A program made the position numbers and the translations under genes. This document shows positions 2,562 through 16,348 of a stretch of 16,489 nucleotides of DNA, piece by piece; the first letter of the stretch is position 1, and each line of letters begins with the position of its first letter. The DNA is taken from IMG/VR virus record IMGVR_UViG_3300010882_000009; one strand, written 5' to 3'. The DNA is from a virus (Duplodnaviria > Heunggongvirae > Uroviricota > Caudoviricetes). The notes beneath the pieces are model-generated. The model had not been told where the DNA came from. It searched no databases and saw only the letters and a program-made list of their open reading frames with translations.

Positions 2562-2635
2562 AATAGTATATTTACTGAGCCGATATTTGCGTTTTATAGT
2601 ATGATGCGAATATCGGCTTGACTAAATTTATTATT
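2562..2635 (+). promoter_or_regulatory. long RNA stem-loop (family B-like) before the RBS of 2655
   Basis: GAGCCGATATTTGCGT/ATGCGAATATCGGCTT with G-U pairs; TGAGCCG shared with the 989 and 3052 hairpins. Confidence 0.65.
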
Positions 2636-2654
2636 CTAAAAGGAGGATTTTAAA

Positions 2655-3017
2655 ATGGAAAAGGCAAAACATGTTATAAAACTAGGTGTGGTTGAAGGTA
2701 GACACGAAATGCCTGTATCTTGCTATGTATACAACAAAATAATAGACGTTACTGATATAGACGAGTTATACGAAAGGGCACATAACAATATAATCTATAT
2801 TGGTGGATGGCATACATTAAACGCCAGAATATGGGTTGGTGCGACTGCGACATGTGACGGGTATGCCCCTCATGAGTGTATATTGCACCTGTATGTATCC
2901 GGGTTAACAGTAGCATTAATAGCAGTTATTAATGCTTGTAAAACGCTAGGGTTAGAGGTTGTTCTCTATCATTATAGCAAGGATACAGACAGCTATTATT
3001 CGCAACAGGTGTTATAA
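2655..3017 (+). CDS. hypothetical phage protein, paralogue of 586-951; possible CARF/SAVED-like fold
   Basis: RBS AAGGAGG; C-terminus LHLYVSGLTVALIAVINAC...VVLYHYSKDTDSYY. Confidence 0.88.
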   Translation: MEKAKHVIKLGVVEGRHEMPVSCYVYNKIIDVTDIDELYERAHNNIIYIGGWHTLNARIWVGATATCDGYAPHECILHLYVSGLTVALIAVINACKTLGLEVVLYHYSKDTDSYYSQQVL

Positions 3018-3051
3018 TCAAAATGAGTTAGATTCAATTCTAAGTATAATT

Positions 3052-3140
3052 ATAATTTACGTATTTGAGCCGTATGGCAATTTCTAAATTTTAATTTTTA
3101 AATTTTGGAAAATGCTATACGGTTTTATTGTGTAAATTAT
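3052..3140 (+). promoter_or_regulatory. long RNA stem-loop (family B), copy of 989-1060
   Basis: Same stems, different loop; one A-U pair becomes G-U and one pair becomes a mismatch. Confidence 0.75.
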
Positions 3141-3166
3141 TATAAAAAATAAAAGGAGAATGAATC

Positions 3167-4726: not shown

Positions 4727-5113
4727 ATGAGTGAAACATCTTTTATTGCTATGAGTATGAAAGTAAAAATGATTATTGATATTAATAATAATCCGCAAAT
4801 TGAACTTATTGACATGTTCAATTGTAAATATGTTGCAAGCCTATACTATGTTGGCGGGATTAAGTTTAAATACAAATCAGACGAATATGATTTTGGTGGA
4901 ATTTTCGAAAGCATAGCAAATATAGTAGACGATATAACTATTAATTTACTTATTGATAATGGAATTAGCATTGCTGTAGATAAAACTGAATATCAAAAGC
5001 GTCATGGTGTTTACTGTGATGATGTACAGCGATTTGCAAATTTACTGAATGGAGCATCTGTGTCACAATATAGTAAGCAATACGAGTTATATACTAAATT
5101 GACTGGAGCGTGA
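4727..5113 (+). CDS. hypothetical protein
   Basis: RBS AAGGGG, 128-aa ORF. Confidence 0.82.
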   Translation: MSETSFIAMSMKVKMIIDINNNPQIELIDMFNCKYVASLYYVGGIKFKYKSDEYDFGGIFESIANIVDDITINLLIDNGISIAVDKTEYQKRHGVYCDDVQRFANLLNGASVSQYSKQYELYTKLTGA

Positions 5114-5117
5114 TATA

Positions 5118-5216
5118 ATGTTTGAAGACCGGATAGTAATATTTTTAATTTTAGTTATTGCTGCAATGGTTGTATGTAACTTCTTGCATAAATGCATATG
5201 CTCATGTATGTTATGA
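5118..5216 (+). CDS. small membrane peptide (32 aa, MFEDRIVIFLILVIAAMVVCNFLHKCICSCML)
   Basis: GGAG upstream; starts 4 nt after the previous stop; hydrophobic segment; below the ORF-track cut-off. Confidence 0.5.
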   Translation: MFEDRIVIFLILVIAAMVVCNFLHKCICSCML

Positions 5217-5257
5217 ATGTACTAAAAATTGATTTTAAATAAAAATCATAGGAAGGT

Positions 5258-5455
5258 GTGAGTTTGTTGTCATTGTATTTATTGTCCAAAATTGAACGCA
5301 ACGAAATAATGTTTTATATTGCAATAATAATTGCAATGATTATGTTTGCATTGATTCTGTCTGCGTGCAGCTTACAGCATATAAGAGAATCATATGATAA
5401 GCCATGTACTCTTAGGTGCATGGCGTGTACTGAAATATATTCTGGAAAGCGATAA
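5258..5455 (+). CDS. small membrane protein (start uncertain)
   Basis: Hydrophobic stretch MFYIAIIIAMIMFALILSA; AGGAAGG upstream. Confidence 0.55.
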   Translation: MSLLSLYLLSKIERNEIMFYIAIIIAMIMFALILSACSLQHIRESYDKPCTLRCMACTEIYSGKR

Positions 5456-5463
5456 TTATATTT

Positions 5464-5496
5464 TACACCACATTATACATATAATAATGTGGTGTA
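5464..5496. terminator. perfect 13-bp stem hairpin (terminator or processing site)
   Basis: TACACCACATTAT-acatata-ATAATGTGGTGTA just after the stop; no clear U-tract. Confidence 0.45.
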
Positions 5497-5687
5497 TTAA
5501 ATATTAAAATATTATATGAAAGGATTGATTAAAATGAAGCGGCATTAAGCCGCATTAAGCCGCATAAAATCAAATAATATACCTGATAAAAACCGAAAAG
5601 CTATTCATACGCATTATATGTAATTATATGTGCATATTATATCGCTGATTAAGTTATCAATTTAAAAAACTATATTATTATGGAAGG

Positions 5688-5972
5688 ATGTGTTTTGTTA
5701 TTTTACTACTTACAAGTGATGAAATTAGACAGATTGAGAAGGAGATTAGAGATCTATCTATTAGAATTAACAAAAAGATTCGTATGCGTAAATGTGCGGA
5801 TACAGAATTAGAAAAGCGTCGTATATTACAAGAAAGGCTTGCTATTGCAGTAGAATCTGAATTAGAGATTACATGTGGGGAGATTGGATATGCTGGAGTT
5901 GTGCGTACAAGCTACAGAAAGCCAAAAGCAGGAAAACGAAAAACAAATAAATACGGTTACAAAGCAGGGTAG
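5688..5972 (+). CDS. hypothetical basic coiled-coil protein (start uncertain)
   Basis: 94-aa ORF, Lys/Arg-rich C-terminus. Confidence 0.72.
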   Translation: MCFVILLLTSDEIRQIEKEIRDLSIRINKKIRMRKCADTELEKRRILQERLAIAVESELEITCGEIGYAGVVRTSYRKPKAGKRKTNKYGYKAG

Positions 5973-6034
5973 AGTTATGAAATGCTGAATATAAAACGAA
6001 AGGTGGCAAGCGAGTAATTGATTAAAATAAAATC

Positions 6035-6095
6035 ATAATTGTCATTCGCTACTTTTACAATACATTTACTGTTTTAGTTTGCGGATGACAATTGT
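6035..6095 (+). promoter_or_regulatory. RNA hairpin overlapping the 5' P1 strand of the ribozyme
   Basis: ATAATTGTCATTCGC/GCGGATGACAATTGT, 15 bp including G-U. Confidence 0.6.
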
Positions 6096-6178
6096 TGTTT
6101 AATGTAGCCTTTAGGCTGTGTTGATATATAGCCTAAAGCCCGATTCCCAAGCCGGGGCAGATACAGAGGGGACAACAA
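6092..6178 (+). ncRNA. twister ribozyme, type P1 with P3 stem; predicted cleavage between U6100 and A6101
   Basis: P1 TTGTTGTT/GACAACAA; UAA; P2 TGTA/TACA; GC pseudoknot; P3 CTTTAGGCTG/TAGCCTAAAG; P4 CCCG/CGGG with loop ending TCCCAAGC; 3' GA-GGG pairs with loop CCC. Confidence 0.85.
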
Positions 6179-6204
6179 ATAATGATTATATTGAGGTGAT
6201 TATT

Positions 6205-6387
6205 ATGTTTTCTAAGTCTGAATTATTAGTTTGCTTTTGGTGTTTTATAATATCTTTATTCATTATTAGCGGTGCGATATTGCTAAATACAAAATATTAT
6301 GATAAACTAGACGATATTGTAGAAACCCATGTTCGTTGTGGATATGACGGGTATGTACTGATGCATAATCGTAATTGTCACAAATAA
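6205..6387 (+). CDS. small membrane protein
   Basis: RBS GAGGTG before ATG 6205; N-terminal TM-like segment; the longer 6118 start lies inside the ribozyme. Confidence 0.7.
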   Translation: MFSKSELLVCFWCFIISLFIISGAILLNTKYYDKLDDIVETHVRCGYDGYVLMHNRNCHK

Positions 6388-6390
6388 ATG

Positions 6391-6418
6391 TCTTAATAGA
6401 ACTTGTATTCTATTAAAA
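6391..6418 (+). repeat. dif-like junction site 1
   Basis: TCTTAATAGAA-CTTGTA-TTCTATTAAAA. Confidence 0.85.
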
Positions 6419-6443
6419 TATTAATATAAAGGAGTGGTAAGCA

Positions 6444-6674
6444 GTGGAAGAAACAATGAAAGATTGTGGCATGTATTGTTTAATTGAATCAGGATATAAT
6501 TATGGAAATATTCCTGCACATTTGGTTGAAAGACTACGCAATTGCAAAGAATGTTATTGTAAAGAATGTACTAATACATATGACAATTGTATTTGCGATT
6601 ATTGTATACATTGTGGCAATATAAGTAGGGAATGTTATTGCGATATGGAAAATGTATTAAAAGGAGATGTTTGA
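6444..6674 (+). CDS. Cys-rich small protein (putative Zn-binding)
   Basis: RBS AAGGAG; multiple CxxC motifs. Confidence 0.75.
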   Translation: MEETMKDCGMYCLIESGYNYGNIPAHLVERLRNCKECYCKECTNTYDNCICDYCIHCGNISRECYCDMENVLKGDV

Positions 6675-6675
6675 T

Positions 6676-6876
6676 ATGAGATTTAGTATTGGTGATAGGG
6701 CAGCAATAATTCAGTTAGAAAGTGGTAAAACATACGGAGTAGCAGTTGCAACAAAATCCATGGCTGAGCTTAGCCAACGTCAACAGCCTGCAACAATAAG
6801 CAATACACACTATGACAAAGGTTTGTATGAAGTAAATGAGTCTGAGTTCTTTTTTAGCGACGAAATGTTTGTGTAG
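6676..6876 (+). CDS. hypothetical small protein
   Basis: AAGGAG at 6661 fits ATG 6676; begins MRFSIGDR, a pattern common in small phage beta-barrel proteins. Confidence 0.65.
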   Translation: MRFSIGDRAAIIQLESGKTYGVAVATKSMAELSQRQQPATISNTHYDKGLYEVNESEFFFSDEMFV

Positions 6877-6881
6877 CAATA

Positions 6882-6956
6882 ATTATAATTGTATATTGCA
6901 AGATGTGGCTATGATAACAATATTTATAGCCACATAATGGAGTTTATAATTATAAT
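6882..6956 (+). promoter_or_regulatory. family A stem-loop
   Basis: ATTATAATTGTA-TATTGC-[ATGTGGCTAT...ATAGCCACAT]-AATGGAGTT-TATAATTATAAT. Confidence 0.78.
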
Positions 6957-6971
6957 AAGGAGTGTTTTAAT

Positions 6972-7271
6972 ATGCGTAAATTACAGTCAGTAATTTTAGA
7001 AAAAGGAATTGAAAATGTGAGGATTCAATTCATTGGTAATGCAAGCTTCACAGAAACAGTTGATGCAATATGCCGTTTAGAAGCATATCCTGGTAGCGAG
7101 GATTTTACTGCCGTGTATATACACAAAATAACTGTGATAGAAGTTAAAAAAACAATGACAAAAATACTTTGGGTTCCAATTAATAATAGCAAAAATTTTT
7201 ACATGTCAGATTTAGAGGCAATGATTAATGCCGGATATGTTGTGATTATGAGCAATGATGATTTATTGTAG
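6972..7271 (+). CDS. hypothetical protein
   Basis: RBS AAGGAG, 99 aa. Confidence 0.82.
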   Translation: MRKLQSVILEKGIENVRIQFIGNASFTETVDAICRLEAYPGSEDFTAVYIHKITVIEVKKTMTKILWVPINNSKNFYMSDLEAMINAGYVVIMSNDDLL

Positions 7272-7330
7272 TGCTGTTTAGTACGGCGCTATAGCATATT
7301 GAATAAAAATTAAGTGTTTGGAGGCTAAAA

Positions 7331-8496: not shown

Positions 8497-8718
8497 ATGA
8501 ATATACCTGAATGTCTAACCTATATTTATGATACAAAAGACAAAGGATTAAAGCCGTGTCCGTTTTGTGGCAACCATAAAAGTTTAATAATTGAAATTTA
8601 CATTTTGGACAGTTATTCAGTTGTATGTGATTATTCAAACAATGGTTGTGGAGCATCATCTGGACGTAGACCTACGGAATATGAAGTGATAAATACATGG
8701 AATAATAGGGTGAATTGA
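8497..8718 (+). CDS. Lar (restriction alleviation)-family zinc-ribbon protein
   Basis: LKPCPFCG...VVC...GCGA...INTWNNR is the characteristic Lar_restr_allev pattern. Confidence 0.85.
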   Translation: MNIPECLTYIYDTKDKGLKPCPFCGNHKSLIIEIYILDSYSVVCDYSNNGCGASSGRRPTEYEVINTWNNRVN

Positions 8719-11120: not shown

Positions 11121-12008
11121 ATGTGTGTATTTAAAAGTGGAATTATTTTAAAGGATAAAATTTTTATACCAGACTACGATCACCATACAGATATGCTAAA
11201 AGAATTAAATATAGAGGACAATTCCAAAAATGCTCAGTCTATTTTTGTACGGGCAGAACTTATTCCACAAGATAATAATGTCTTTTCTGATATTGCCACG
11301 TGGAGATTTAATGTTGACCAAGATATAGTACCTGACTGGTTTGTTAAAGATTATGAAAAAGAAAGAATGATCGCCGCAGTAAAAGAATGGGGAAAATCAC
11401 GTATTTATATTGGTGTTGACGGATTAGAATTATCAACAGGAGCTAATTATTATTTAAAAGATTGTAAAGATGTTCTATTGCAAGGTAATGTAAATGTTGC
11501 AATGTTGCAAAGTTCAAATGTAGAACAGATGTTAGGTAGCTCCGCTGTAGAAGTGATGAGAGATAGCTCAACTGTAGGACATATGTGGGAAAGCTCAACT
11601 GTAGAAAAGATGTTGGATAGCTCAACTGTGCGTCGGATGAGAGGAAGCTCAACTGTAGGAGCTATGTGTGGAAACTCAATTGTAGAAAAGATGTGGGATG
11701 GCTCAACTGTGCATAAGACATTTGATAATTCAACTGTGTATCATATGGGTGCTAGCTCAACTGTGCATCAGATGTTGGATAGATCAACTGTAGGAGAGAT
11801 GTTTGATAGATCAACTGTGGGGGAGATATTTAATAGGGCAACTATAATTAAGATGAGAGATAGCTCAACTGTATCAATACCAGATGATTATTTTTCAAAA
11901 TATGTAAAACAAGATAGCATTATACTGTATGATAATGCTGTAATAAAAGACAGTCGCACAAAAACAATTTATCATAGTGGAGATTGGAAACTAGTTTTAA
12001 AGAACTAG
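11121..12008 (+). CDS. phage protein with a 9-aa tandem repeat (putative beta-solenoid)
   Basis: RBS AAGGAG; 14 repeats of MxxSSTVxx at 11502-11879; N-terminal MCxFKSGIIL...DHHTDML...FVRAEL domain. Confidence 0.9.
   Translation: MCVFKSGIILKDKIFIPDYDHHTDMLKELNIEDNSKNAQSIFVRAELIPQDNNVFSDIATWRFNVDQDIVPDWFVKDYEKERMIAAVKEWGKSRIYIGVDGLELSTGANYYLKDCKDVLLQGNVNVAMLQSSNVEQMLGSSAVEVMRDSSTVGHMWESSTVEKMLDSSTVRRMRGSSTVGAMCGNSIVEKMWDGSTVHKTFDNSTVYHMGASSTVHQMLDRSTVGEMFDRSTVGEIFNRATIIKMRDSSTVSIPDDYFSKYVKQDSIILYDNAVIKDSRTKTIYHSGDWKLVLKN
11502..11879 (+). repeat. 27-bp coding tandem repeat, 14 units
   Basis: Recurrent AGCTCAACTGT core with 27-bp period. Confidence 0.9.
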
Positions 12009-15724: not shown

Positions 15725-16348
15725 ATGAAATGGATTAAATTAAGCAACGATAATTTCCAATACATTCTAAATAAAATAAACAAAGTTTGCTTTTCTCGGC
15801 GCGTTATAGTTGGACGCAATTGCATTGATACTAAAACAAATAAAGGTACTCATAAGGATAAATTTGTAAAAATAGCCAGAAGAATAAAGATATTAAAAAA
15901 CAACAAATACAAAAGGCATTACAAGTTAATAATTAACAAGCAATTCTGGAGTGTAACGGAACACATCTTTAGGACAGACCCATCACGTGGAAATTGCTAT
16001 ACAAATCCTCCAATAATCCATATTAATATGGCAGCAGCTATGGGGACATGTTTATATGAAGGCGACGAAGTTAGATTTCTACCTTTCGGAATTATACAGA
16101 TTAAACGCTATCCAAGATATGCCGAACGCTTTTCAAATATATATACTCTATTACCAACAATTAAAAAAGTTGACAGAGATAAAATCATTGCAGATCGGGA
16201 AAATGAGGAAGAGCGGATTGATGATGAGTATTTCAAAGATGAATTAGAACGAGAAATAGAAGAAGAATTATATGAAGATGCAAACGAAGATGTAGAATAC
16301 TTCGATTTTGATTATTATGATTGTAGAGATTATGACGACTTCGATTAA
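15725..16348 (+). CDS. hypothetical protein, basic body with a very acidic Asp/Glu/Tyr/Phe C-terminal tail
   Basis: RBS AAGGAG; tail EEERIDDEYFKDELEREIEEELYEDANEDVEYFDFDYYDCRDYDDFD. Confidence 0.88.
   Translation: MKWIKLSNDNFQYILNKINKVCFSRRVIVGRNCIDTKTNKGTHKDKFVKIARRIKILKNNKYKRHYKLIINKQFWSVTEHIFRTDPSRGNCYTNPPIIHINMAAAMGTCLYEGDEVRFLPFGIIQIKRYPRYAERFSNIYTLLPTIKKVDRDKIIADRENEEERIDDEYFKDELEREIEEELYEDANEDVEYFDFDYYDCRDYDDFD

Follow-up and report, generated by a model that had tools for sequence, protein, structure and literature searches.

A candidate type-P1 twister ribozyme with a two-base insertion in L4, upstream of a small membrane-protein gene in a probable gut phage

Genomic setting of the element

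The window (the whole stretch of DNA that was analysed, 16,489 nucleotides from the Caudoviricetes record IMGVR_UViG_3300010882_000009) contains a run of short same-strand ORFs, and the candidate ribozyme is intergenic within this run, on the coding strand. The locus is made up of the following features:

5688..5972, + strand: upstream ORF of up to 94 aa, with its stop about 128 nt before the predicted cut site
6035..6095, + strand: P0-type hairpin with a 15-bp outer stem (6035-6049/6081-6095), overlapping the outer half of P1 at 6092-6095
6092..6178, + strand: candidate type-P1 twister fold (P1, L1, P2, P3, P4, L4, T1, T2), from Rfam RF03160, the pair table and the inserted-relative model
6179..6206, + strand: predicted 11-bp start hairpin, its stem taking in the 3' half of the SD motif, the spacer and the start codon's first two bases
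6205..6387, + strand: downstream gene for a 60-aa protein with one hydrophobic helix (hydropathy 2.65), SD motif at 6193-6198

A clear family match was obtained for one of the 32 window proteins, a Lar-like restriction alleviation protein at 8497 (Pfam and PHROG). The proteins of the 5688 ORF and the 6205 gene each returned themselves alone in the protein search, with ESM Atlas matches below 0.9, and the 6205 protein had no Pfam or PHROG match. A contig of 225,398 bases encodes both flanking proteins, and the sequencing runs with this DNA are labelled termite gut metagenome; because of these features and the gene run, the source is probably a large gut phage. DNA similar to 5600-7300 was not found in the INPHARED phages, nor a relative of the 1122 protein in the viral contigs, and INPHARED, the protein searches and the viral contigs gave no relative of the ribozyme locus that could show conservation of the window copy.

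The membrane-protein gene had been placed about 100 nt past the cut in the original prediction, and its start at 6205 is indeed 104 nt after the cut site. This layout is typical: in 48 of 56 canonical viral twisters an SD-like motif and a start codon follow within about 120 nt, at a median distance of 81 nt from the cut. A suggested link to the first 'dif-like' site is not supported; the first such palindrome is at 6396, behind the 6205 gene and about 295 nt from the cut. The palindrome, ATAGAA-N6-TTCTAT with 0-2 mismatches, has 11 matches in the window (6396, 7644, 7860, 10744, 10787, 12047, 12874, 13343, 14181, 14488 and 16256), of which ten are at or between gene ends and the last, inside an ORF, is probably due to chance.

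Several other features of the window were recorded. CA/TA dinucleotide repeats fill positions 1-140, which may be a terminal repeat or else a low-complexity edge of the assembly. A duplicated module, its copies about 2.07 kb apart (560-1064 and 2629-3143), carries paralogous genes for 120-aa proteins, and behind each stands a long hairpin (985-1064 and 3048-3143), nearly identical in the two copies. The 295-aa ORF at 11121-12008 includes eleven copies of a 27-base (9-residue) repeat at 11486-11900 and had no Pfam or PHROG match. Long intergenic hairpins at 5458-5503 (-17.9 kcal/mol) and 6882-6956 (-30.8 kcal/mol) may bound the transcription unit of the ribozyme; a terminator scan of the window was at chance level.

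Identity and anatomy of the candidate twister

The element at 6092-6178 is, judged by its sequence, a type-P1 twister ribozyme with a two-base insert in L4. Its parts, all on the + strand, are:

6092-6099/6171-6178: P1, 8 bp with one U.G
6100-6102: U6100-A6101-A6102, directly after the P1 5' strand
6100..6101: predicted scissile bond U6100/A6101, from its place in the twister consensus, with A6101 as the predicted general acid
6103-6106/6162-6165: P2, 4 bp, perfect
G6107-C6152 and C6108-G6151: T2 pseudoknot, the GC of L2 with the GC of L4
6109..6138: auxiliary P3 hairpin (6109-6121/6126-6138), 13 bp with a 4-nt loop, long and AU-rich
6139-6142/6153-6156: P4, 4 bp
6143-6152: L4, 10 nt, the core at 6145-6152 following A6143-U6144
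6143..6144: AU insert, following the P4 closing G-C pair and preceding the conserved L4 U
C6146-G6170, C6147-G6169 and C6148-G6168: T1 pseudoknot, three pairs plus A6149/A6167 (A.A), placed by complementarity only
6166: G6166, predicted general base, following the P2 3' strand, its role as given in PMC5408937 and PMC11662667

The Rfam twister-P1 model (RF03160) matched 6096-6174 over its whole length with 45.4 bits (E 2e-7) and placed the AU as an insertion. The Rfam match, the folding and the pair table agree on stems P1, P2 and P4 in twister order, with the element ending in P1, and the conserved bases A6101, A6102 and G6166 and the U.A pair of L4 (U6145/A6150) are all in place in the pair table. 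The original prediction of a twister is thus borne out in every element: the covariance search that it named as its check gave this significant match, the cut site at 6100/6101 and G6166 fit their consensus positions, and the roughly two extra nucleotides (AU) that it had noticed in L4 are what Rfam treats as inserted. P3 is also present as described, its length having been put too low at 10, as against 13 bp.

The score is below the RF03160 gathering threshold of 67.2 bits. This says little about class membership, because 25 twister-P1 matches in 20 canonical viral loci (hand-picked from 119) scored 44-68 bits and 23 of them were also below the threshold, only two reaching it; the missing cut-off limits the Rfam label and not the twister class. 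The L4-plus-GAGGG motif was absent from 200 shuffles of the window (0/200), and folding of 6088-6182 gave z = -3.4. In pseudoknot-free folding T2 has an alternative pairing with 6157-6158, at a probability of about 0.37. Among the structural features tested, the element departs from the pattern in the consensus loop length and the Rfam cut-off alone.

This was the single ribozyme found in the 16.5-kb window with Rfam and the inserted-relative model, three further Rfam matches being weak and unrelated, and it sits in a G+C-rich patch of a region of 31% G+C. The 3' arm of P3 (6119-6138) looks like a degenerate repeat of the 5' half of the ribozyme, and the inserted-relative model (R1) aligned it as that half; from this resemblance, the long P3 may have arisen by local duplication.

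Recurrence of the L4 insertion

The consensus L4 of 8 nt directly after P4 is replaced in the window by a loop of 10 nt, and 9 or 10 nt were found in nine other natural cores. In the viral contigs there were 126 canonical 3'-half matches, comprising 89 with P1, P2 and a normal P4 (47 distinct cores), 36 without P1/P2 and a single odd one that is probably chance. The insert must be rare, because L4 was 8 nt long in all 89 of the canonical matches with P1, P2 and a normal P4.

Inserted loops were sought as twister motifs with a non-G base before the loop core in three collections (72, 34 and 81 stretches), a scan that is blind to inserts ending in G. Filtering on P1 and P2 alone, ignoring P4, left 11 distinct cores besides the window. 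In nine of these (16 loci) a perfect 4/4 P4 was displaced by one or two bases, compared with 1 of 154 background matches. The displacement was one base in seven cores and two bases in L384 (AA) and L393 (AU), so that two-base inserts occur in just two cores other than the window, one of them with the identical AU in a different core. Across the loci the insert at the P4/L4 junction is U, A, AA or AU. A further locus, L369, has a 3/4 P4 and one extra U and was marginally outside the spacing of the filter, and was matched by both Rfam and the inserted-relative model. Since most of the 16 inserted loci form one related group, they represent about four or five independent lineages, the window included.

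In an alignment of nine of the inserted cores, whose rows were picked after their pairing was seen, 96.7% of cells pair, 9 of 17 pairs change on both sides and none of 500 shuffles was as high; the pseudoknot columns were fixed by the search pattern and hence are uninformative, and the row of L366 is one base out of register in P4. A model built from the inserted relatives, with the window excluded, matched the window at 37.2 bits (E 1.5e-8), taking the P3 3' arm as the 5' half. Rfam at E 0.001 detected 5 of 14 inserted loci and left 9 undetected, and searching 100 fetched loci with the inserted-relative model added no inserted twister to the 13 that were known in this set.

Only a position after the P4 closing G-C pair and before the conserved U fits the insert in all loci, and this would be consistent with a flipped-out bulge; that the insert varies while the core is constant is as expected of a bulge. 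The AU is not peculiar to one assembly, because an independently assembled contig, possibly from the same sample, matches 5000-6693 without difference, the insert included. The doubt that the insert had originally cast on activity is weakened, as the same position recurs with intact, covarying stems and the published L4 location 1 is tolerant. In the literature searches, a bulge of 1-2 bases at the P4/L4 junction was nowhere described as a sub-type, but the supplement of PMC11662667 and the discovery paper may hold cases.

Some candidates were set aside. L473, from the genome collection (81 stretches), has an ambiguous core and a 3/4 P4, and L296 passes on P1/P2 and is without P4; both were excluded from the count. 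For fifteen matches a twister with a long L4 arm was considered; no 5' half was found inside 230 nt, and the matches look like coding sequence. The narrow pattern scans yielded chance matches only. A narrow loop-pattern scan (120 loci) gave none that passed the strict anatomy filter and two that passed the loose one, both without P4; a second narrow pattern (55 loci) gave none with a downstream GAGGG, and further narrow scans (8 and 23 loci) gave four loose passes without P4.

The surroundings of some of these twisters were also recorded. Two inserted-loop twisters lie within tRNA gene clusters (L337 1997-2051 and L366 2997-3051, both on the - strand), the former, from a viral contig of 181 kb, about 95 nt ahead of a tRNA, and they could take part in tRNA precursor processing. 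In L356, L379, L380, L388 and L399 an element about 100 nt upstream of the cut is conserved (71-99% mutual identity); it had no Rfam match at E 0.001 and may be an RNA that gets its 3' end from the twister. Different ribozyme classes are known to cluster together, and canonical twisters were seen near a pistol ribozyme (L144 1109-1175) and a twister-sister ribozyme (L196 1530-1600).

The upstream hairpin

The 15-bp hairpin at 6035-6095 had been predicted to compete for half of P1 and to modulate cleavage. The hairpin and its overlap are real (z -5.9, 0/300 shuffles, the strongest z among 68 ribozymes compared) and it is complete before the ribozyme is transcribed. Modulation is only weakly supported: in the fold of 6030-6200 the six inner P1 pairs keep probabilities of at least 0.96 and the outer two drop to 0.23 and 0.63, and completing P0 gains about 5.1 kcal/mol against 7.5 for P1. 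Upstream folds with z at or below -3 were seen in 16 of 56 canonical viral twisters, at least two P1 bases being taken in ten of those, although these z values are rough, with 25 base shuffles each. From the retained inner pairs, the energies and this frequency it follows that the upstream hairpin is an ordinary, known auxiliary P0 element. According to PMC11662667, such a hairpin is present in about 10% of natural twister candidates, and the mean cleaved fraction is 0.40 with P0 (0.67 if P3 is present too) versus 0.85, a reduction that speaks in favour of modulation. A switch driven by P0 is unlikely because six P1 pairs remain intact and P1 is reported to be dispensable in twister (PMC5408937). 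The likeliest use of P0 would come after cleavage, when it could close over 6092-6095, help to release the 5' product and leave a structured 3' end.

The downstream gene and its predicted start hairpin

The predicted start hairpin (-7.3 kcal/mol, z -3.8, 0/300 shuffles) can extend into the P1 3' strand. The opening energy at ATG 6205 is 9.8 kcal/mol, above that of every other valid start in the window (26 remained of 28 scored coordinates, as 6453 and 7002, one of which had 11.2, were dropped as non-start codons), and this value is reached in 2 of 48 canonical twisters. When the RNA is continued to 6260, pseudoknot-free folding replaces P1 and P2 by pairing with the downstream gene, and forcing the twister core costs 6.8 kcal/mol; this cost may be repaid by the two pseudoknots and by Mg2+, all of them outside the folding model. 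With the core forced, the opening energy of the start is 6.6-8.4 kcal/mol before cleavage versus 7.4 after it, so cutting does not clearly flip access to the start.

A long helix between 5967-6019 and 6219-6261 (-28.6 kcal/mol, G.U-rich) was chosen after the fold was seen, and 0 and 1 of 300 shuffles were as good. It is not claimed, as among 1075 distant segments those at 15876 (-28.6) and 4881 (-28.5) equal it.

Type I toxin mRNAs encode small hydrophobic proteins and have their ribosome site buried in structure. The 6205 gene was considered as a possible case: a hydrophobic helix and a predicted start hairpin were observed, and no homologues were found in the search. Such systems also have an antisense antitoxin RNA and a toxic peptide; promoter-like sites on the minus strand were at chance (33 on both strands versus 26.5 expected).

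Proposed function and alternatives

The most probable reading is that the twister folds co-transcriptionally and cuts the phage message between U6100 and A6101, so that an active ribozyme would split a polycistronic phage transcript in an arrangement that is already known; we put the probability of this predicted cutting at roughly two in three. A polycistronic transcript would run left to right through the 5688 gene into the ribozyme, where the AU would flip out between the P4 closing G-C and the conserved U, leaving the pseudoknots and active site intact and perhaps lowering the rate. The upstream RNA left by cleavage would carry P0 and a cyclic phosphate at its 3' end, and the hairpin could zip over 6092-6095, helping product release and shielding that end. 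The downstream RNA would have a 5'-OH and the folded core at its head, with the membrane-protein gene starting 104 nt further on. The two halves could then differ in stability and translation, and whether the downstream half is stabilised or degraded would depend on host nucleases.

Every conserved base and pair is present, which supports this reading, and about 94% of tested natural twisters, from thousands of candidates, are reported to cleave (PMC11662667). The same source describes cleavage as independent of L4 length and L4 locations 1 and 9 as tolerant of change. Small ribozymes near phage genes have been proposed to split polycistronic RNA, and their purpose is called unsettled in the same articles (PMC3088659, PMC6765202). 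Evidence against activity comes from PMC11662667, in which both P0 hairpins and L4 insertions lowered average cleavage, and from the predicted refolding with the downstream gene in the RNA to 6260, at its core cost of 6.8 kcal/mol.

These same points could mean that the copy is slowed or decaying, with the AU a recent lesion, or with P0 and the downstream hairpin trapping the RNA, so that little is cut in the cell. The published averages, the predicted competing fold and the rarity of two-base inserts (two other cores) all agree with it, but it is an unlikely explanation: no other lesion accompanies the insert, as none of the four stems, the two pseudoknots or the catalytic bases is damaged, the element stands out as a G+C-rich patch in a region of 31% G+C, and the AU also occurs in the different core of L393. 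That the stretch is instead a coding 5' extension of an 89-aa protein from GTG 6118, with an accidental likeness to twister, is very improbable and largely refuted. Public gene calls do begin at or near 6118, but this GTG falls inside the P3 stem and an SD motif precedes ATG 6205; moreover, the E value of 2e-7 is against all of Rfam, no shuffle of the 200 reproduced the motif, and none of the 120 chance loop-pattern matches showed the remaining anatomy under the strict filter.

That the element acts as a kinetic switch on the membrane-protein gene is quite unlikely. Here the RNA would have only a brief time to fold and cut before 6196-6235 captures the ribozyme 3' strand and extends the start-codon hairpin; P0 and the long helix would tune this, and cutting would set the dose of a possibly host-damaging membrane peptide. 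Its appeal lies in the predicted hairpin at 6179-6206 that would bury the start and is extendable into the P1 3' strand, the highest opening energy of the window starts, the strongest P0 z of the 68 ribozymes and the long duplex. The opening energies before and after cleavage show no clear flip, however, the duplex is post hoc, G.U-rich and equalled elsewhere, no homologues were found with which conservation could be checked, and the window has three further small hydrophobic proteins with no ribozyme. The folding features therefore keep a switch in consideration as far as folding models go and do not establish one. The boldest version, in which a bulged, deliberately slowed twister competes with its flanking hairpins to set membrane-protein output and belongs to an uncatalogued sub-type with a 1-2 base P4/L4 bulge mostly missed by Rfam, is improbable; if it were true, the P4/L4 junction would be a free insertion site beside the catalytic core.

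Relation to known systems and significance

Roth et al. in 2014 are said to have reported the discovery of twister. The element shares with type-P1 twister (RF03160, clan CL00120) the L4 core sequence and the ending in P1. The order of P1-P4, T1 and T2, the U/A cut site and the conserved A and G are likewise those described in PMC5408937 and PMC11662667; the window adds two bases at the P4/L4 junction, a long AU-rich P3 and a score below gathering. The natural twisters tested by CHiTA (PMC11662667) include catalogued L4 insertions and upstream P0 hairpins, as in the window, whereas a hairpin burying the ribosome binding site is outside that analysis as far as its account goes. Hammerhead and twister ribozymes flanking phage or prophage genes are described at the same kind of intergenic, coding-strand site, a short distance ahead of a start codon among consecutive small genes (PMC3088659, PMC6765202); in contrast to these, the 16.5-kb window has a single ribozyme and no tandem series.

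The twister class and the transcript-splitting layout in phages are thus known, and the recurring small bulge is a modest addition to them. The role of twister in phages is described as still open (PMC6765202), and the window copy, coming from an uncultured element, does not make that role easier to test. The structural value is likewise modest: the window and nine natural cores indicate that an insertion of one or two bases immediately next to the pseudoknots is possible. Search models can be broadened to take in the recurring insert, which points to an insertion site that is tolerated. Should cleavage prove to control the buried start codon, the element would have a defined regulatory role, something rare for a phage twister.
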